IMG/VR virus record: IMGVR_UViG_2627853732_000005
Direction: 5' to 3' (one strand)
DNA: 22,433 nucleotides
Origin: a virus
Taxonomy: Duplodnaviria > Heunggongvirae > Uroviricota > Caudoviricetes
The notes under the pieces are model-generated. The model did not search any database. It was not told the origin of the DNA and was given only the letters and a program-made list of their open reading frames with translations. Made by a program: the position numbers and the translations under genes. Positions 201-17,610 of the stretch are shown here, one piece after another (the stretch's first letter is position 1; the number at the start of each line of letters is the position of its first letter).

Positions 201-824
201 TTATTCCACGATAAAATTCCTAACCGAATTCAAATCCTTCAGACTATTCAGCTCTTCCTTCAGCTCCCGCTGACGGCGATAAATCTCGTCATTGCGCTCA
301 ACCTGTGCCTGAGCCATTGCTGCCGCCAGTTCTTCCAGTTCCGGCATCGACTGTTTCACCTGCTGATTATCGGCATCACCCCACGTCATCACGTCCCGTA
401 CAATGTCGGATTTCGCAGCCATTACCACCGGATAAAGGCGGCCCAGTGAGTTGGGGCCAGCATTCCAGATACGACCGTTCCATTCAAACGTGAACGGCTT
501 CGCCTCCTGTTCTGTGCGCCATGCTTCAATTCCCTGACGTCTGGCCTCTCTGGCCGCTTCCAGCATTTCTGGTGTCACAGTGAATGGGGCTATCTCACCC
601 CATTTGCCACTTTGCAGTTCCTGCCAGATTCGCTGACCCGTCGGTGCGACATCATCAGCGGTGGCTGTGTAGGGGACTGCCTGGTCCCTGTCGTCAAAAA
701 AAACGTCACAGTCTACTGCGCCACTTTCGGTATAACGGGGATTAATGATTTTTTTAATTTCCACGGTGCATTCCTCACGATGTGCGAATAAAAAGCCCGG
801 GCATTGCGCCAGAGACATGAGCAT
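201..824 (-). CDS. phage protein directly 3' of the tail-fibre fragment; position suggests a tail-fibre assembly/chaperone role, not confidently recognised
   Basis: 207-aa ORF from the track, same orientation as and immediately downstream of the fibre fragment (lambda stf-tfa layout). First ~16 codons overlap the fibre frame (stop at 775-777), so the true start is probably internal. I cannot name a motif with certainty. Confidence 0.45.
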   Translation of the reverse strand: MLMSLAQCPGFLFAHREECTVEIKKIINPRYTESGAVDCDVFFDDRDQAVPYTATADDVAPTGQRIWQELQSGKWGEIAPFTVTPEMLEAAREARRQGIEAWRTEQEAKPFTFEWNGRIWNAGPNSLGRLYPVVMAAKSDIVRDVMTWGDADNQQVKQSMPELEELAAAMAQAQVERNDEIYRRQRELKEELNSLKDLNSVRNFIVE

Positions 825-1445
825 CCGGCACCCCGGACAGGGCGCTATATGACCCCGGTAATGAATGCTCTGAACATCCCGTAATGAAAAATTGTGGGGA
901 TGCTATATACGTTCCGGTGGGAGTACTGGGCACTGAAATCCCCACCGGCCCCAGTCGTGAGCCTCTGTATGACTGCCCCCTGACAAGTCTGATGACTTTA
1001 TCACCGTCAGCTTCTCCCTGGTACGCAGCAATAATCAGCCCGCCAATGTCAGGGTCTCCCCATCTGTTGCAGACAGAGCTCGCCACGATTCTGTAAATAA
1101 TATCTTCTGTGGTTATATTTATTTTCACCCAGCCAGTCAGTCTGGATATGGGCCAGTAGCAGTAGCGGGTGTGATAAATGGGGCCGTTAATGCCGTAAAA
1201 AGTAAGGGATTTGGCTCTGTACCTCGGTTCTGTTGTCTCAGGGCGTGCATCAGTCCACCGGATGCTGAGCACCCCTTCAAACCGTGTGTCGGGTATGATG
1301 ATGTCGTAGGGGCCAGCAACGGAATATTCACCTGGCAGCGCATTCCTTACCCAGGCCAGGAAATCACTCTTAGTGTCAAAACGGATAACATCTTCAGGCA
1401 GAAAAGCACACCCAAAGCCGAATGCGCCGGGTATCGCCAGACGGC
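775..1445 (-). pseudogene. C-terminal fragment of a phage tail-fibre gene, 5' part removed at an IS600 boundary
   Basis: Track ORF 775..1461 starts with TTG at 1459-1461 and its first 5 codons (LPVHL) are read out of the IS600 terminal repeat. The frame then stays open to TGA at 775-777. Gly/Ser/Thr-rich fibre-tip-like composition. No start codon of its own. Confidence 0.55.
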
Positions 1446-1488
1446 TGAGGTGTACTGGCAATAGCGGACACTACCATTTGTTCTTTTT

Positions 1489-2307
1489 TTAAGCAGCCAT
1501 CTGATGATATTTTTCCCTGAAGGCTGCCGGGGAGATATTCCCCAGACGAGAGTGACGACGCTGACGATTGTAGAAAATCTCAATGTATTCCCGTATTACT
1601 GAGATGGCTTCATCCCGGTTATTAAAACGATAGTGGCTCAGGCTCTCATTTTTCAGCGTTCCCCAGAAGCTTTCCATCGGAGCGTTGTCGTAACAGTTAC
1701 CTTTACGCGACATTGATGTTTTCAGACCAGACTGCTCCTGTATGACCCGGTAATCGTATGCGCAGTACTGTGAACCTCGATCAGAGTGGTGGATTAGCCC
1801 GGCAGGTGGGCGCTGGCTCCTGAGCGCCATAAACAGGGCTTTACCTGTCAGCTCTTTTGTCATGCGCTCTCCCATGGCGTAGCCGACAATTTCGCACGTA
1901 TAAACATCTTTGATGCCAGCGAGGTACAACCATCCCTCCTGTGTGGCAACATACGTCAGGTCCGCCACCCAGACCTGATTTGGTGCTGTAGGAGCGAACG
2001 TCTGGTTCAGCAGATTTGGCGCAACTGGCAGATTGTGGTTCGAGTTCGTAGTCGCTCTGAACTTGCGTTTCTGCTTACAGCGTAGCCTTAGCTCCTTACG
2101 AAGACGTGCCAGTCGGTCACGACCAACGATGATGCCATTCTCTGCCAGCTCCGTCTGGAGCCGCCGGGTTCCATATGTTTCGCGAGTGCGGATATGTGCC
2201 ACCTTAATCTCCAGTTTTAGCCGCTCATCACTTTGTTTTCTGTCTGAGGGTTCATGCTGTACCCAGTTGTAATAACCGCTCCTGGATACACCAAATACCT
2301 GACACAT
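1489..2307 (-). CDS. IS3-family transposase OrfB (DDE integrase-like domain), copy A
   Basis: 272-aa ORF whose translation matches OrfB of the other copies (MCQVFGVSRSGYYNW...HSDRGSQY...). Confidence 0.85.
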   Translation of the reverse strand: MCQVFGVSRSGYYNWVQHEPSDRKQSDERLKLEIKVAHIRTRETYGTRRLQTELAENGIIVGRDRLARLRKELRLRCKQKRKFRATTNSNHNLPVAPNLLNQTFAPTAPNQVWVADLTYVATQEGWLYLAGIKDVYTCEIVGYAMGERMTKELTGKALFMALRSQRPPAGLIHHSDRGSQYCAYDYRVIQEQSGLKTSMSRKGNCYDNAPMESFWGTLKNESLSHYRFNNRDEAISVIREYIEIFYNRQRRHSRLGNISPAAFREKYHQMAA

Positions 2308-2342
2308 CGCTTCAATGGGAAATTGTTGTCGCCATTGTTCGA

Positions 2343-2622
2343 TTAACGCGTATTTTTCAGCGACTCCTGTGCAAAATACGCTGTTGCTTTTTTTAATATA
2401 TCTCGCTCAAGGCGAGCTTCATTTAACGCCTTACGCAGTTGCAGAATTTCAGATTCCAGTTCAGCCACCGTGCGGGAACCAGGAGTACCGAGCCCTTTTC
2501 TGGCGGCGGTAACCCATTGTCCTAAAGTGCCTTCAGGAAGAGATAATCGGGAAGCGCCTTCACTGATCGAAAGTTGATTTTCAAGAACCGTTCTGACAGC
2601 TTCAGCTTTGAACTCTTTAGAG
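2343..2622 (-). pseudogene. IS3-family OrfA (HTH), N-terminally truncated, copy A
   Basis: Track ORF 2343..2645 reads MWSAGIDTSKEFKAEAV... where intact copies read MSRKTQRYSKEFKAEAV.... The first codons therefore come from flanking istA sequence. Confidence 0.7.
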
Positions 2623-3295
2623 GTATCGATACCGGCTGACCACACAGCGCTTCGGGAACGCTGTAACGATTACCACCAACCTCGATATAGCTGTCCCAGG
2701 ACACATGGCGGATATCGAAGTAACTGGTATCGAAGTCTGTATCCGGTAACGGCTGCAGATGTTCCTGCTCCAGCGCGAAGCGCTGTTCCGGCGTTTCTTT
2801 GAACTGGCGAAGCTCCCGTTTGTCAGCCACATCGGCTATCCATTGCTCCAGTTGTTGATTGACATGAGTGAAGCTGTCGAACCTGCGGTACCGGACGAAG
2901 AAGTTCTCCTTGAGGTATTTCACCATCCGCTCAACCTTACCTTTTGTTCTGGCCCTGCGTGGACGGCATGCCCGTGGCAGGAAGTTATAGTGGTCAGCCA
3001 GCAACAGGAATCCGGAGTTGAACACGACTTTCCCGTTGTTATTCTTCAGCACCGCAGCCTTCTGGTTATCAACCAGCACCGTTTTCACACAATCACCGAA
3101 GTAGCGGAAGGCGCGAACCAGTGATTCGTAGGTATGCTCAGCATCCTGTTTTGGTGCGGCGAAGACATGGAAGCTGCGGGAGAACCCCAGCGTATTAACC
3201 GCAAAGTTAACTTTGCACCGTTGCCCGGCAACCTCCACCTCAACTTCGCCCCAGTCATGCTGGAGCTGGTATCCAGGCTGAGTTTCGAAGCGAAC
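2623..3295 (-). pseudogene. istA: IS21-family transposase IstA, central/catalytic fragment
   Basis: Translation from 3295 downward reads VRFETQPGYQLQHDWGEVEVEVAGQRCKVNFAV...LPRACRPRRARTKGKVERMVKYLKENFF, the IstA DDE-region pattern as I recall it. It is cut at 2622/2623 by truncated IS600 copy A. The track ORF 2522..3238 is this frame running on into IS600. Confidence 0.65.
3293..3295. repeat. 3-bp target-site duplication (AAC), left copy, of IS600 copy B
   Basis: AAC directly abuts both ends of the element (3293-3295 and 4560-4562). Confidence 0.8.
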
Positions 3296-3359
3296 TGAGG
3301 TAGCCTGAGTTTAACGGACACTCCTTCCTGAAATAGAATGGCATCAGAAGGAGCTAATA

Positions 3360-3662
3360 ATGAGCAGAAAAACCCAACGTTACTCTAAAGAGTTCAAAGC
3401 CGAAGCTGTCAGAACGGTTCTTGAAAATCAACTTTCGATCAGTGAAGGCGCTTCCCGATTATCTCTTCCTGAAGGCACTTTAGGACAATGGGTTACCGCC
3501 GCCAGAAAAGGGCTCGGTACTCCTGGTTCCCGCACGGTGGCTGAACTGGAATCTGAAATTCTGCAACTACGTAAGGCGTTAAATGAAGCTCGCCTTGAGC
3601 GAGATATATTAAAAAAAGCAACAGCGTATTTTGCACAGGAGTCGCTGAAAAATACGCGTTAA
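3360..3662 (+). CDS. IS3-family transposase OrfA (HTH DNA-binding)
   Basis: 100-aa ORF MSRKTQRYSKEFKAEAVRTV...; the identical protein recurs at 12777 and, with one substitution, at 12298 and 20743. Confidence 0.9.
   Translation: MSRKTQRYSKEFKAEAVRTVLENQLSISEGASRLSLPEGTLGQWVTAARKGLGTPGSRTVAELESEILQLRKALNEARLERDILKKATAYFAQESLKNTR
3611..3617 (+). other. candidate programmed -1 ribosomal frameshift site (A7 run followed by G) joining OrfA to OrfB
   Basis: TTAAAAAAAGC near the orfA 3' end. The -1 frame from this point reads KKSNSVFCTGVAEKYALIEQWRQQFPIEAMCQVFGV..., which runs into OrfB. IS3-family elements are known to make OrfAB this way. Confidence 0.6.
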
Positions 3663-3697
3663 TCGAACAATGGCGACAACAATTTCCCATTGAAGCG

Positions 3698-4516
3698 ATG
3701 TGTCAGGTATTTGGTGTATCCAGGAGCGGTTATTACAACTGGGTACAGCATGAACCCTCAGACAGAAAACAAAGTGATGAGCGGCTAAAACTGGAGATTA
3801 AGGTGGCACATATCCGCACTCGCGAAACATATGGAACCCGGCGGCTCCAGACGGAGCTGGCAGAGAATGGCATCATCGTTGGTCGTGACCGACTGGCACG
3901 TCTTCGTAAGGAGCTAAGGCTACGCTGTAAGCAGAAACGCAAGTTCAGAGCGACTACGAACTCGAACCACAATCTGCCAGTTGCGCCAAATCTGCTGAAC
4001 CAGACGTTCACTCCTACAGCACCAAATCAGGTCTGGGTGGCGGACCTGACGTATGTTGCCACACAGGAGGGATGGTTGTACCTCGCTGGCATCAAAGATG
4101 TTTATACGTGCGAAATTGTCGGCTACGCCATGGGAGAGCGCATGACAAAAGAGCTGACAGGTAAAGCCCTGTTTATGGCGCTCAGGAGCCAGCGCCCACC
4201 TGCCGGGCTAATCCACCACTCTGATCGAGGTTCACAGTACTGCGCATACGATTACCGGGTCATACAGGAGCAGTCTGGTCTGAAAACATCAATGTCGCGT
4301 AAAGGTAACTGTTACGACAACGCTCCGATGGAAAGCTTCTGGGGAACGCTGAAAAATGAGAGCCTGAGCCACTATCGTTTTAATAACCGGGATGAAGCCA
4401 TCTCAGTAATACGGGAATACATTGAGATTTTCTACAATCGTCAGCGTCGTCACTCTCGTCTGGGGAATATCTCCCCGGCAGCCTTCAGGGAAAAATATCA
4501 TCAGATGGCTGCTTAA
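3698..4516 (+). CDS. IS3-family transposase OrfB (DDE), copy B
   Basis: 272-aa ORF from the first ATG. Differs from other copies at one visible residue (NQTFTPTAPN versus NQTFAPTAPN). Confidence 0.9.
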   Translation: MCQVFGVSRSGYYNWVQHEPSDRKQSDERLKLEIKVAHIRTRETYGTRRLQTELAENGIIVGRDRLARLRKELRLRCKQKRKFRATTNSNHNLPVAPNLLNQTFTPTAPNQVWVADLTYVATQEGWLYLAGIKDVYTCEIVGYAMGERMTKELTGKALFMALRSQRPPAGLIHHSDRGSQYCAYDYRVIQEQSGLKTSMSRKGNCYDNAPMESFWGTLKNESLSHYRFNNRDEAISVIREYIEIFYNRQRRHSRLGNISPAAFREKYHQMAA

Positions 4517-4559
4517 AAAAAGAACAAATGGTAGTGTCCGCTATTGCCAGTACACCTCA

Positions 4560-4562
4560 AAC
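4560..4562. repeat. 3-bp target-site duplication (AAC), right copy, of IS600 copy B
   Basis: See 3293..3295. Confidence 0.8.
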
Positions 4563-4886
4563 TGTTCTTTTTGACGGACGCATTTTACGTTTGGGCTGGA
4601 TGTAGTAACGCAGCATGGAACGTCCGCCCGTATAACCCATTGCCTTAATCTCCGCGAAGATAACCTCGCTATTCCAGACATTCTCTGCCAGGCGCATGTC
4701 GATGTAATCCATAAACGGTTTCAGCTTAACCATTTTGTGGCGGGTCTTTCTGGCTGGCGGTTCAGGGTATTTGAGGTAGCGTCTGACCGTCCGTTCAGAG
4801 CAACCAATCTGAGTCGCAATATCGACGATGTACGCGCCCTGCTGGCGCATTTGCTTTATCATGTAAAAGTCCTCTCTGCTCAGCAT
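4560..4886 (-). pseudogene. istA: IS21-family transposase IstA, N-terminal HTH fragment
   Basis: ATG at 4886; MLSREDFYMIKQMRQQGAYIVDIATQIGCSERTVRRYLKY...SKRTV, then TGA supplied by the IS600 end. Continues in phase at 3295. Confidence 0.7.
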
Positions 4887-4993
4887 GTTGATGTCCTTTC
4901 TGGTGTGAGAACCTTAAGGAAACAACATGTTGGGTGGAGCGGACAATCCAAATGGCGAATTACCGTCTTATATCACTGGCGCTGACACTTCAT

Positions 4994-5299
4994 CACCTCC
5001 GGACGTAAATCACCATCCTTTGGTGCATTCAGAAACGCGTTCAGTGTCCCCGGTGCATCAGTCGGTGCCACATCAATATCCCCGACACGGGTTGGCTGCC
5101 AGCCGTTACAGTGAAGCGCAACCTCGTAATACCCCGGCTCAGCCTCAATCACATAAGCACCGTTATTGTCCGTCACGCAAGTGGCAACAACGTGTGCCAC
5201 AACGGTCGGACTGGTTCTTCTGGCCCGCAGTTCAATCGCACAATTTACGACAGGTTTACCCGCCCCATCTTTCAGTACACCTGAAATCTTTACTGCCAT
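4994..5299 (-). pseudogene. stf: side tail-fibre gene stf, N-terminal ~102 codons only, truncated by the IS21-family element
   Basis: From ATG at 5299: MAVKISGVLKDGAGKPV...GTLNAFLNAPKDGDLRPEV follows lambda Stf N-terminus as I recall it. It then switches to MKCQRQ-stop, which is IS-derived. Track ORF 4973..5341 begins upstream at an alternative start. Confidence 0.7.
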
Positions 5300-6029: not shown

Positions 6030-9000
6030 TCAGCTAATCGTGATGCCTGCAGTGGCTTTCTTCATCACCACAACCAGCAAATCGCTGATACTTGCTGTGG
6101 GATACCAGCCATTTACCAGCCATGCCGATACAGAAAACTCCAGCGTCATGTGACCGTGACCGGCAGGCATATCAATAACACCCGTATATATCAGCGTATT
6201 ATCCAGGGTCGTTCGGTTATAAATTTCAGCACCGTTTTTCTTCACTATCAGGCGGCATGACGAATAAATATTGTTATTCTTCCGCTCATGTTTAGCACCG
6301 CGAAACGCCACCGCGGGAATAACAATTTGCCGATCAAACGGCTGATCGTCATAAACCCTGACGGTAATGGTCCCTGATGGCCACCTCTCCGGTGCCCGGG
6401 AGTCCCGTGGGAAAGGTTTGCCCACTGTTTTAACGAGATCGCCTTCAATCTGGTTCGCGGACAATTTTCCCAGAACCCGACAGTTCTTATTAATCGTGAC
6501 GTTGTTGAGCGTCCCGGAGTTCGCGTTCACGTTACCGCTGATATCGGCATTTTTCGCCGTCAGCCGTCCGCCAGGTGTCAGGGAAAATGCCGGAGGATTA
6601 CCGCCGCTGGTAATGGTCGGAGCCGTCAGGCATTTCAGGAACACGTCGTTCATGAATATCTGATCGCCCTGACCAACAAACATCGGCTTTGTGTTGCCAT
6701 TCGCAGGATTAATCATCGCAATCCTGTCTGCCGCCAGCAGCACCTGACTCTGCATTCCTGCTGGCGTATTCTCAATACCGGCACCGATACCCGCAATATA
6801 AAGGCGTCCGTCCTTCATCTGTTGCAGCTTCACAGCCCACATGCTGTTCAGGTTATTATTTGTATCAACCTGAACTTTCTGTATCTGCTGGATTGCAGCA
6901 CTCTGATTTTCCAGTTTTTTATTGACGGTTTGCGTGATTTCATTGCTGACATTCGTAATGGACGTCCTGATTTCAGTCAGGTCCGGCGCAAGCTGACCGT
7001 TATCAATCTGCGTCCACAACTCCTTGCCGAGATGCGTTTTATTGATCAACCCTTTATAAAAATTCAGATAACCTTCTGCATCATCGCTCGCCCGACCGAT
7101 GGCCTCCACAAATGCCGATTTGCCAACGGTGTTCACACTGCGAACGTAAAAATAATAATCATGGCCCGGCCTGATATTGATACTGGCGGCTATCCAGTAC
7201 AGCGCCGTGCCAAGATAGCGGGCGCTGGTTTCAACCTGCCTGATATCCGCAATCCGCTTTTCCGAAAACCAGAACTCAAACTGCACCGTCGGGTCATATA
7301 CAGCCAGTTTCGGGACCGCCGTTATCTGAAAATACCCCGGTATCAGTTCAATAGTGACAGGCGCTGCCGGTGCCGCAATCCGGAACGATACCGACGCCGG
7401 ATCGCCCTGCTGCCCCCGGGCATTTACCGCCCGGACTGTCAGACTGTAATTCCCCAGCGCCAGCTGCCTGAAGCGGTATGTGGTTTCCGTCGTCCTGGCT
7501 GTGCTGACCAGCCGCTCACTGCCGTCGTCCGCTGCCACGGTCAGGCGAAGCAGGAAGCTCACACCCTTCACCACCTTCGGCGTGTCCCATCGCGCCAGCA
7601 CCTGATATTCCCCGCTGTCTGCGGTGACTTCGGCGGTCAGATGCTGCACCGCTGGCGGCGTGACACCATTCACCGTGCCGCGCCGGTCACCGTCAAAGTG
7701 TGCCCCGTTATCCACGATGGCCTCTTTTTCCGGCACATGCTGCACGGCGGTGATGGCATACGTGCCGTCGTCGTTCTCACGGATACTCACGCAGCGGAAC
7801 AGACGCTGGCGCAGCGTCGGCAGCTTCAGCCCCCACACGCTGTATTCTGCAACGCCGTCAGGAACCCGGCTCACTTTCACCTTCACGCCGTCGGTGACGG
7901 ACTGGACCTCCACGCTGACCGGATTGCCACTTCCGTCAACCAGGCTTATCAGCGTGGTACCGGAGGACGGCAGCGTGATTTCACGGTCGAGCGTCAGCGT
8001 CCGGGTCTGGCTGTTCACCGCCAGTACGCGACCACCGGTGCTGATACCGGCATAATCATCATCGCAGATTTCAATGACATCACCCGGTACATGGCGAAGC
8101 CCTTCTGCGCCCACGCTGAAGTCCACGGTCTGCGTTTCCAGCAGTTCCGTTTTAATCAGCCACAGCCCGGCTCGGTGTGCCTGCCCCCGGCTGGTACAGC
8201 CAAAGGCATCCATCTTCGTGACATTACGACCGTAACGGGCAATGGCCTGCGTATCCTCCACAAGCTCTGTCGCCGTCTCCCAGCCGTTATCTGGGTCAAT
8301 CCAGTTCACCTCAACGGCATTATGGCGGTCCTTCAGGGCGCTGAAGCTGTAGCGGAACGGCGCGCCATCGTCCGGCATCACCACATTACTGCGGTTATAG
8401 GTCCACACCTTATCCGACGGTCGGTCCTGCACGAACGTCAGCATCTGTCCGTTCCATACCGGCATACAGCGCATCGCCGAGCAGAAATCACTGAGAACAT
8501 CCCACGCCTTACGCTGTGTGGTCAGGTAAGAGTTACAGGTGATGCGCGGCTCCGTGCCGCCAAATCCGTCCGTCACTGACTGGTCGCAGTACTGGCCGAT
8601 GACATACAGCGCCCATTTGTCCACATCTGCCGCACCAAGACGTTTCCCCATGCCGTAGCGCGGATGAGTGAGCATGTCCCACAGACACCAGGCCATGTTG
8701 TTGCTGTATGCTGGCTTAAGCGTTCCGTCCCAGATACCGCTGTATTGCCGCGTCTGCGGGTTATAGTTCGACGGCACCTGCAGAATGCGCCCGCGAAGAT
8801 GATAATTGCGACTCACCTGCTGGTTACCGAACTGCTCTGAATCCACCTGCACGCCGACCAGCGCCGTGTTCGGGTAGCACTGTTTCACATCGATGATTTC
8901 GGTGTACGACGACCAGAGCGTTTTGTTCTGCAGCTGGTCTGTGGTGCTGTCCGGTGTCATCCTGCGCATCCGGATATTAAACGGGCGCGGCGGCAGGTTA

Positions 9001-12233: not shown

Positions 12234-12715
12234 TGAGGTAGCCTGAGTTTAACGGACACTCCTTCCTGAAATAGAATGGCATCAGAAGGAGCTAATAATG
12301 AGCAGAAAAACCCAACGTTACTCTAAAGAGTTCAAAGCCGAAGCTGTCAGAACGGTTCCTGAAAATCAACTTTCGATCAGTGAAGGCGCTTCCCGATTAT
12401 CTCTTCCTGAAGGCACTTTAGGACAATGGGTTACCGCCGCCAGAAAAGGGCTCGGTACTCCTGGTTCCCGCACGGTGGCTGAACTGGAATCTGAAATTCT
12501 GCAACTGCGTAAGGCGTTAAATGAAGCTCGCCTTGAGCGAGATATATTAAAAAAAGCAACAGCGTATTTTGCACAGGAGTCGCTGAAAAATACGCGTTAA
12601 TCGAACAATGGCGACAACAATTTCCCATTGAAGCGATGTGTCAGGTATTTGGTGTATCCAGGAGCGGTTATTACAACTGGGTACAGCATGAACCCTCAGA
12701 CAGAAAACAAAGTGA
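12234..12715 (+). mobile_element. IS600-like element, copy C, left 482 bp only
   Basis: Left terminal repeat at 12234, orfA, and the first ~20 codons of orfB. The sequence then jumps at 12713-12715 (shared TGA) into the left end of copy D. Confidence 0.85.
12298..12600 (+). CDS. IS3-family transposase OrfA, copy C
   Basis: 100 aa; carries the VPENQ variant (VLENQ in copies B and D). Confidence 0.8.
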   Translation: MSRKTQRYSKEFKAEAVRTVPENQLSISEGASRLSLPEGTLGQWVTAARKGLGTPGSRTVAELESEILQLRKALNEARLERDILKKATAYFAQESLKNTR

Positions 12716-12776
12716 GGTAGCCTGAGTTTAACGGACACTCCTTCCTGAAATAGAATGGCATCAGAAGGAGCTAATA

Positions 12777-13079
12777 ATGAGCAGAAAAACCCAACGTTAC
12801 TCTAAAGAGTTCAAAGCCGAAGCTGTCAGAACGGTTCTTGAAAATCAACTTTCGATCAGTGAAGGCGCTTCCCGATTATCTCTTCCTGAAGGCACTTTAG
12901 GACAATGGGTTACCGCCGCCAGAAAAGGGCTCGGTACTCCTGGTTCCCGCACGGTGGCTGAACTGGAATCTGAAATTCTGCAACTGCGTAAGGCGTTAAA
13001 TGAAGCTCGCCTTGAGCGAGATATATTAAAAAAAGCAACAGCGTATTTTGCACAGGAGTCGCTGAAAAATACGCGTTAA
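12777..13079 (+). CDS. IS3-family transposase OrfA, copy D
   Basis: 100 aa, identical in translation to copy B OrfA. Confidence 0.85.
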   Translation: MSRKTQRYSKEFKAEAVRTVLENQLSISEGASRLSLPEGTLGQWVTAARKGLGTPGSRTVAELESEILQLRKALNEARLERDILKKATAYFAQESLKNTR

Positions 13080-13114
13080 TCGAACAATGGCGACAACAAT
13101 TTCCCATTGAAGCG

Positions 13115-13754
13115 ATGTGTCAGGTATTTGGTGTATCCAGGAGCGGTTATTACAACTGGGTACAGCATGAACCCTCAGACAGAAAACAAAGTGATGAGCG
13201 GCTAAAACTGGAGATTAAGGTGGCACATATCCGCACTCGCGAAACATATGGAACCCGGCGGCTCCAGACGGAGCTGGCAGAGAATGGCATCATCGTTGGT
13301 CGTGACCGACTGGCACGTCTTCGTAAGGAGCTAAGGCTACGCTGTAAGCAGAAACGCAAGTTCAGAGCGACTACGAACTCGAACCACAATCTGCCAGTTG
13401 CGCCAAATCTGCTGAACCAGACGTTCGCTCCTACAGCACCAAATCAGGTCTGGGTGGCGGACCTGACGTATGTTGCCACACAGGAGGGATGGTTGTACCT
13501 CGCAGGAGCAGTCTGGTCTGAAAACATCAATGTCGCGTAAAGGTAACTGTTACGACAACGCTCCGATGGAAAGCTTCTGGGGAACGCTGAAAAATGAGAG
13601 CCTGAGCCACTATCGTTTTAATAACCGGGATGAAGCCATCTCAGTAATACGGGAATACATTGAGATTTTCTACAATCGTCAGCGTCGTCACTCTCGTCTG
13701 GGGAATATCTCCCCGGCAGCCTTCAGGGAAAAATATCATCAGATGGCTGCTTAA
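13115..13754 (+). pseudogene. IS3-family transposase OrfB disrupted by internal deletion, copy D
   Basis: Track shows two fragments (13115..13540 and 13470..13754) in different frames; the first diverges after EGWLYLAG. Confidence 0.8.
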
Positions 13755-13979
13755 AAAAAGAACAAATGGTAGTGTCCGCTATTGCCAGTACACCTCACAC
13801 TCTATCCAACAAACCACCCACAGTTAATCGGAATAAAAGCAGAGTGCTTATGAATGATCGCACGCCCGAAGGTTAGTATTTCTGCACAGCAATTTTGCAA
13901 AAAAAGGCGATCATTCATAACTTAAACGTCTTTCAGTCACTCCGGGATTTCCCATCATCGCAGACTGAAAGACTCTGAC

Positions 13980-14054
<75 letters not shown>

Positions 14055-14057
14055 ATA

Positions 14058-14133
<76 letters not shown>

Positions 14134-14135
14134 GC

Positions 14136-14212
14136 TGGCCCACCACCGAGGACTCGAACCTCGCACCGTCAACTTAGAAGGTTGATGCTCTATCCGGATG
14201 AGCTAGTGGTGG
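14136..14212 (-). tRNA. tRNA-Arg (anticodon UCU)
   Basis: Reverse complement CCACCACTAGCTCATCCGGATAGAGCATCAACCTTCTAAGTTGACGGTGCGAGGTTCGAGTCCTCGGTGGTGGGCCA. Acceptor CCACCAC/GTGGTGG, anticodon stem TCAAC/GTTGA, loop CTTCTAA; encoded CCA. Confidence 0.8.
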
Positions 14213-14213
14213 T

Positions 14214-14290
14214 TGGTGGCCCTTGCTGGACTTGAACCAGCGACCTGGCGATTATGAGTCGCTCGCTCTGACCAACTGAGCTAAAGGGCC
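14214..14290 (-). tRNA. tRNA with CAU anticodon, most likely Ile2 (lysidine type) rather than elongator Met
   Basis: Reverse complement GGCCCTTTAGCTCAGTTGGTCAGAGCGAGCGACTCATAATCGCCAGGTCGCTGGTTCAAGTCCAGCAAGGGCCACCA. Anticodon loop CTCATAA. Overall close to E. coli ileX as I remember it; Ile versus Met cannot be settled by eye. Confidence 0.75.
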
Positions 14291-16204: not shown

Positions 16205-16310
16205 GATGCCTCCAGGTTTATAAGTACAAACGGTTATATCAACATAGAGACAAAAGGTGATGCTGCCAACTTACTGATTTAGTGTATGATCGTGTTTTTG
16301 AGGTGCTCCA

Positions 16311-16586
16311 GTGGCTTCTGTTTCTATCAGCTGTCCCTCCTGTTCAGCTACTGACGGGGTGGTGCGTAACGGCAAAAGCACTGCCGGACATCAGCGCTAT
16401 CTCTGCTCTCACTGCCGTAAAACATGGCAACTGCAGTTCACTTACACCGCTTCCCAACCCGGTACGCACCAGAAAATCATTGATATGGCCATGAATGGCG
16501 TTGGATGCCGGGCAACTGCACGCATTATGGGCGTTGGCCTCAACACGATTTTACGTCACTTAAAAAACTCAGGCCGCAGTCGGTAA
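16311..16586 (+). CDS. insA: IS1 InsA
   Basis: [43 protein letters not shown]..., 91 aa. Confidence 0.95.
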
Positions 16587-17115: not shown

Positions 17116-17271
17116 TTACTCTCTAGATTCGTAGTCTACGAAAACAGCGACCTCCGTCTGGCCGATTCGGATTCGTACCTCGCAGAGGTCTTTCCTCGTT
17201 ACCAGTGCCGTCACAATGACGGTTAAACAGATGACGATCAGGGCGATTAACATCGCCTTTTGCTGCTTCAT
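17116..17271 (-). CDS. hok: Hok/Gef-family type I toxin (51 aa); the in-frame upstream extension to 17328 is Mok-like
   Basis: MKQQKAMLIALIVICLTVIVTALVTRKDLCEVRIRIGQTEVAVFVDYESRE closely follows HokD/HokC as recalled. AAGGAG lies 9 nt upstream of the ATG at 17271. Confidence 0.85.
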   Translation of the reverse strand: MKQQKAMLIALIVICLTVIVTALVTRKDLCEVRIRIGQTEVAVFVDYESRE

Positions 17272-17610
17272 AGCCTGCTTCTCCTTGCCTTTCGGCACGT
17301 AAGAGGCTAACCTACATTTGTGAGACATAGATTGGGCCTCAGATTAATGTTAAGCGTCTTGCAGGACGCGTAATGTTAACTGGGGCTTTTCTCTGTCTGC
17401 CTTACAGTGACATACCCGAGGCAGACAGCCTCAAGCACCCGCAGCAATCTTACCGACACCGATAAGAAAACGCTATTTTTTATTGCCAGCACCATCTATC
17501 CAGGCTAGTTTATCTGCGTCAGAACGGCGCAATGCGCTCGCCTGAGATACGTTTACTTGCCATGGTAACAACAGGTAACGGCAATTGCTGTTTCTGTTTT
17601 GTTTCCTTCA

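Follow-up and report, generated by a model that had tools for sequence, protein, structure and literature searches.

How did a phage tail fibre gene come to lie in two pieces around the remains of transposable elements that are themselves truncated and nested? The question is raised by a DNA stretch of 22,433 nucleotides (IMG/VR virus record IMGVR_UViG_2627853732_000005), called the window below, in which positions 775-5299 were examined on both strands and for repeats. The locus lies in a lambdoid prophage remnant adjoining sitABCD on the Shigella sonnei chromosome, and over 14,886 bp the window was 100% identical to the S. sonnei assembly GCA_000815815.1. The S. sonnei genome has undergone a massive expansion of insertion sequences (IS), and Shigella genomes carry hundreds of IS copies, IS600 being one of five expanded families (PMC7373316). 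Nested or truncated elements are therefore unsurprising here; what has to be explained is which events produced this arrangement, and how much of their order it records.

The uninterrupted state is provided by E. coli VL40, in which the gene order is J, lom, stf, a tfa-like gene (DUF4376), sitDCBA, uspF and ompN, and in which stf is intact, codes for 471 aa and contains no IS. The S. sonnei assemblies have the same gene context. Using the joined stf remnants of the window as a query, we found intact stf in nine complete E. coli genomes at ~97% identity, VL40 and CFSAN029787 among them. The remnants and the gene downstream of them are:

201-824, minus strand: intact tail-fibre-assembly-like gene (DUF4376) downstream of stf; an open reading frame (ORF) with PF14301, whose VL40 orthologue is a DUF4376 protein
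775-1445, minus strand: what is left of the 3′ part of stf, beginning with the second base of codon 249; the VL40 alignment continues to the stf stop
4988-5299, minus strand: 5′ remnant of stf, codons 1-104 (MAVKISG...PEVMK), aligned to the VL40 locus and carrying PF08400

Both domain content and position identify the gene as stf: the 122-aa product that contains the Stf N terminus has PF08400 (phage_tail_N) as a listed domain, the intact VL40 orthologue bears the annotation 'prophage tail fibre N-terminal domain protein', and the order J, lom, stf, tfa was verified. Homology to stf ends at window position 4988, which corresponds to position 6382 of the VL40 locus and to the third base of codon 104, and restarts at window position 1445, which corresponds to VL40 locus position 6816 in codon 249. 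Compared with VL40, 433 bp of stf are missing between the two elements that border the remnants, IS640 and a copy of IS600 (copy A). A previous interpretation made from the letters of this DNA (the sequence-only reading) had proposed that an IS21-family element interrupts stf, and the VL40 locus bears this out and fixes the breakpoint; the cut, however, falls after codon 104 and not, as had been proposed, after codon 102. The stf gene is dead.

The IS21-family element, IS640, is itself in two pieces, with a second copy of IS600 (copy B) between them:

2623-3295, minus strand: IS640 positions 426-1098, istA codons 109-332 plus 1 nt, aligned without gaps to pSS_046 and Ecol_542
4560-4987, minus strand: IS640 positions 1-428, with the left inverted repeat TGTCAGCGCC at 4987 and istA codons 1-109 (ATG at 4886)
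4988-4991: GAAG (stf strand), presumed left copy of the 4-bp target duplication of IS640, the right copy being lost

When 2623-3295 and 4563-4987 were rejoined on the minus strand, the product aligned without gaps, and with 1 mismatch, to positions 1-1098 of intact copies on the pSS_046 plasmid and on the E. coli Ecol_542 chromosome. The rejoined IstA of 332 aa is identical to the 390-aa reference WP_000952382 at 331 of 332 residues, and its score of 279 bits against NF033546 (NCBIfam transpos_IS21; cut-off 160) places it among the IS21-family IstA transposases (HTH plus DDE). The reference copies are 2130 bp long, with genes for IstA (390 aa) and IstB (265 aa). They are flanked by 4-bp target duplications, CATG and TATA at the pSS_046 and Ecol_542 copies and ATGC at the copy on pR18.0877_278k. 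The pSS_046 copies are 99.9% identical to the window element over 1098 bp and have the same left inverted repeat; the pR18.0877_278k copy, also of 2130 bp, is 99.3% identical (8 of 1098 positions differ). The pR18.0877_278k copies have been called IS640, and a related chromosomal insertion has been described as an 'IS640-like element (2,130 bp)' with a 4-bp repeat (PMC10714929). The name IS640 follows the usage of that one paper and is not ISfinder-based; the PGAP label of the element is 'IS21-like element IS21 family'.

Unlike the references, the window copy keeps positions 1-1098 alone, and these are split by IS600 copy B. IstA ends at residue 332 and the element stops at position 1098; the 3′ 1032 bp are gone, and with them istB (no IstB was found in the window copy), the inverted repeat of the right end and the other target copy. 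Of the TGTCA... inverted repeats expected at both ends of such an element, the left one, at 4987, has the reference sequence. Since the left flank alone survives and the reference copies have 4-bp duplications, GAAG probably represents the left half of such a duplication. Comparison with strains that have the uninterrupted element had been proposed by the sequence-only reading, and the alignment to the 2130-bp references substantiates its claim that istB and the 3′ part are missing; the terminus that it had put at 4990 moves to 4987. With a truncated IstA, neither istB nor a right end, and half of a target duplication, the window copy is a remnant and not a functional member of its family.

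The element that splits IS640 has the following parts:

3293-3295: AAC, left copy of the target duplication of IS600 copy B (GTT, Val109, on the istA strand)
3296-4559, plus strand: IS600 copy B, complete, 1264 bp, from repeat mapping and the transpos_IS3 profile
3360-3662, plus strand: orfA of copy B, a 100-aa ORF (HTH)
3611, plus strand: A7G slippery (-1 frameshift) motif of copy B, at IS600 position 316, inside orfA
3698-4516, plus strand: orfB of copy B, a 272-aa ORF (DDE/rve), with PF00665 (rve) listed
4560-4562: AAC, right copy of the target duplication of copy B, from flank comparison with intact references

Copy B has each of the defining features of IS600 for which we tested. Like IS600, a 1264-bp member of the IS3 family, it has imperfect repeats with TG...CA termini, orfA and orfB with an A7G motif, and a 3-bp duplication. 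Its terminal inverted repeats begin TGAGGTAGCC... and TGAGGTGTAC... (left repeat TGAGGTAGCCTGAG..., right repeat TGAGGTGTACTGGC...), in agreement with the ~1264-bp length and TG start of IS600, and it scored 335 bits against NCBIfam transpos_IS3 (cut-off 160). Identical DNA is labelled as IS600 family by PGAP. Copy B thus appears to be intact. It carries substitutions at window positions 3569 and 4010 (IS600-B positions 274 and 715), absent from the other window copies that cover them, and may descend from an IS600 sub-lineage other than that of the copies around it.

In the intact reference istA, AAC occurs singly, at element positions 426-428 (Val109). The AAC on either side of copy B thus represents a genuine target duplication, made at IstA codon 109, the single reference AAC outweighing the 1-in-64 chance of a 3-bp match. 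The sequence-only reading had described both the AAC flanks (3293-3295 and 4560-4562) and an IstA frame continuous across copy B. Indeed, removal of copy B and one AAC leaves one open minus-strand frame, and the references do not have the different join, without AAC, that had been put forward as a counter-case. The accompanying claim, that copy B entered a pre-existing and intact istA, holds for the continuity of istA at the insertion; the word 'intact' applies only locally, around the site.

The nesting itself leaves room for a different birthplace. An IS640 already carrying copy B could have formed elsewhere and reached stf as a unit, either in trans or by recombination with another IS640, and IS600-B would then predate the stf insertion. 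S. sonnei pINV indeed has five nearly identical IS640 copies that might have served as IstA/IstB donors or as recombination partners. However, the IS600/istA junction at this site was present in no PLSDB plasmid and no E. coli genome, and, while matches to the 109-aa ORF fusing the IstA N terminus to IS600 were in excess on contigs of 50-200 kb, every contig read that encodes this fusion represented the same chromosomal locus. We regard an origin elsewhere as quite improbable. With no second composite copy in the contigs read or in PLSDB, insertion of copy B in situ, into an IS640 resident in stf, is favoured, and it is this that we infer.

The other IS600 copy lies between the IS640 remnant and the 3′ part of stf:

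1446-2622, minus strand: IS600 copy A, positions 88-1264, a 1177-nt inverted match to copy B with 3 mismatches
2622-2623: deletion junction, at which IS600 position 88 meets IS640 position 1098 (...GATAC/CTCTA...)

DNA identical to copy A is annotated as an 'IS3-like element IS600 family transposase'. The left 87 bp of copy A, with its left inverted repeat and the start of orfA (position 65), are missing, and so is the left flank, in which one half of a 3-bp duplication would lie; its right end is intact, terminal at 1446, and abuts stf codon 249. The intact right end at codon 249 indicates that copy A inserted in stf itself, most simply as a simple insertion. The loss of 87 bp and the inverted arrangement of the two IS600 copies with left ends facing, both already part of the sequence-only reading, were recovered by repeat mapping (positions 88-1264 retained; the left ends face across the 673-bp istA fragment). 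An insertion of copy A into stf, 433 bp downstream of IS640, had no place in that reading. Both IS640 and IS600-A are dead.

At 2622/2623 neither side of the junction is an element terminus. The IS640 reference would continue with GAATA and IS600 position 88 is preceded by GTTA, so that microhomology is zero. An internal motif resembling a left inverted repeat (TGGTCAGCCGG) lies 10-20 bp from the break and not on it. The absence of an element terminus, together with the absence of microhomology, marks the break as an illegitimate, non-transposase deletion between the elements, as had been supposed beforehand. A transposase-made junction was rejected, there being no terminus on either side. The size of the deletion comes to 1032 + 4 + 433 + 3 + 87 = 1559 bp if both insertions were simple, with 4-bp and 3-bp duplications. 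RecA-independent deletions in enterobacteria usually involve a few bases of homology, and a blunt junction is uncommon; the blunt, microhomology-free join thus counts against the explanation that we prefer.

The right end of copy A, exactly terminal at 1446, is also what any end-mediated event predicts. Copy A could first have landed in the 3′ half of IS640 or directly next to that element; its right end would then have promoted a deletion of neighbouring DNA as far as stf codon 249, and a second, small deletion would later have removed the IS600 left end and some of IS640. That other IS600 copies in the window have no target duplications implies that rearrangements at IS600 ends do occur here. 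However, this route needs four events against three, and its left junction would still require an illegitimate deletion. IS3-family elements transpose by a copy-out/paste-in mechanism and rarely make adjacent deletions, which also speaks against it. We consider this sequence of steps unlikely.

What each piece is and where it ends, the AAC duplication, the two stf breakpoints and the blunt join are shown directly. They make it probable, in our judgement, that stf was hit by both IS640 and IS600-A, that IS600-B entered IS640 in situ, and that one deletion of ~1559 bp joined the two truncated elements. In this reconstruction, IS640 (2130 bp) would have inserted into stf after codon 104, and copy A at stf codon 249, 433 bp downstream of IS640. 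Copy B would have transposed into the istA gene of the resident IS640 at codon 109, making the AAC duplication; the prior state of istA would be the empty AAC site AAAAGAACAGTTCGCTTCGAA. One illegitimate deletion of ~1559 bp would have removed IS640 positions 1099-2130, which hold the last part of istA, the whole of istB and the right inverted repeat, together with the inner target-site copies of both elements, the 433 bp of stf that separated them and IS600-A positions 1-87. Before it, one would expect the IS640 right end followed by GAAG and CGCTTTGAGG on one side, and ...GACAAAAGGCC followed by TGAGGTAGCC at the left side of IS600-A, with a GCC duplication if the insertion was simple. Parsimony is the basis both for a single deletion and for the target duplications that IS640 and IS600-A are taken to have had at first.

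The hypothetical junction between the IS640 right end and stf was found in none of the genome and metagenome contig collections, and that between stf and the IS600 left end in no metagenome contig; no strain was found in an intermediate state, whether pre-deletion or pre-insertion. Nor did the junctions that do exist in the window turn up outside S. sonnei in these searches: none of the four IS junctions tested was present in 5426 complete E. coli genomes, the deletion, IS600-A/stf and stf/IS640 junctions included, and the deletion junction was also absent from PLSDB plasmids and from GTDB species representatives.

Part of the order follows from the structure. IS640 preceded IS600-B, since the latter is nested in it, and both IS640 and IS600-A preceded the deletion, since both are truncated by it. 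Because the insertion site of IS600-B (426-428) and the deletion endpoint (1098) are independent and lie apart, which of these two events came first is not recoverable. The sequence-only reading had proposed a linear series, of which IS640 before IS600-B stands; its next step, IS600-B and then the deletion, does not follow from non-overlapping sites.

Inverted repeats of 1177 bp (3 mismatches) only 673 bp apart are hard for short-read assemblers, and a collapse or mis-join between IS600 copies could in principle have created the whole arrangement. However, the same five junctions (searched as 40-mers) recurred in at least 12 independent assemblies, among them long-read complete chromosomes of ~4.8 Mb and the Sanger-era Ss046; in two error-prone assemblies one junction each was missing. 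This recurrence, together with the Ss046 annotation, refutes an assembly artefact and leaves it scarcely any probability. Inversion between the IS600 copies was rejected separately as a source of the arrangement: after any odd number of inversions the AAC copies would no longer lie together on either side of copy B, which would then show no duplication. The isomer at the inverted pair was the same in all assemblies.

Across the 2622/2623 junction runs a chimeric predicted ORF of 100 aa (2343-2645, minus strand), which starts with GTG at 2645 in IS640 and continues in frame into orfA of IS600-A (MWSAGIDT/SKEFKAEAV...). The gene caller of one assembly extended it to a 385-aa OrfAB-like product. 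The arrangement might thus not be inert: the inverted IS600 pair (1177 bp, 3 mismatches, 673-bp spacer) could be a RecA-dependent invertible or fragile segment, or copy A could supply IS600 OrfA/OrfAB in trans from the chimeric GTG at 2645. We think either very improbable.

The structure is already in the public record. Three junction-spanning ORFs, of 122 aa (Stf N terminus to IS640), 109 aa (IstA N terminus to IS600) and 238 aa (IstA to IS600-A), are recorded in hundreds of samples, and each of the contigs examined with these ORFs represented the same chromosomal locus. In S. sonnei Ss046, junction ORFs are annotated as AAZ88447 and AAZ88444, named 'IS21 ORF1', with IS600 ORFs in between; a third source name among the junction proteins is 'putative tail component [Shigella sonnei]'. 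The 238-aa and 109-aa ORFs of Ss046 are identical in sequence to those of the window, and there is no structural difference between the loci. Given these annotated ORFs and the 100% identity over 14,886 bp, the structure was already present in the 2005 reference genome. The public annotation is a list of fragments, from which the history of events is absent.

IS600 has left other traces in the window. A second IS600-in-IS600 arrangement occupies 12234-13797, where a 5′ fragment (12234-12715, IS600 positions 1-482) is abutted at 12713 by another IS600 with an internal 179-bp deletion (positions 791-969). The outer flanks of this pair have no target duplications, and the pair sits between the antiterminator Q gene and minor tail genes, the expected place of lysis and head genes. 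Most other S. sonnei assemblies are collinear to 13506, where the internal deletion starts, and have a full-length orfB in that IS600 copy, which makes the 179-bp deletion strain-specific. A complete IS600 at 20679-21942 (plus strand) is flanked by TAG on the left and TTG on the right; the lack of a 3-bp duplication points to recombination or a deletion at this copy.

Elsewhere in the window, four tRNA genes (Gly-tcc, Thr-tgt, Arg-tct and Met-cat; 13980-14290, minus strand) adjoin the late-gene regulator region of the prophage. The stretch 17266-17440 (minus strand) matches the sok antitoxin RNA (RF01794) over its full length, at 118 bits, and indicates a putative hok/sok-type toxin-antitoxin locus inside the prophage remnant. 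This locus falls within the ~3.5 kb bracketed by direct repeats at 16256-16555 and 19772-20071 (99-100% identical), each with a pair of ORFs of 91 and 167 aa, a layout that we take to be typical of IS1.

Beyond annotation, the consequence of these findings is small: the locus is a clear case study of how IS elements break down a prophage remnant in S. sonnei. It also illustrates the limit of nesting as a clock, in that an insertion must postdate the sequence it entered, while structure alone gives no order for independent events within one element. If a product of copy A did act in trans, it would influence IS600 activity in S. sonnei. The prophage remnant still carries the sitABCD iron/manganese transporter, and the five junctions, S. 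sonnei-specific within the collections searched, may serve as lineage markers.
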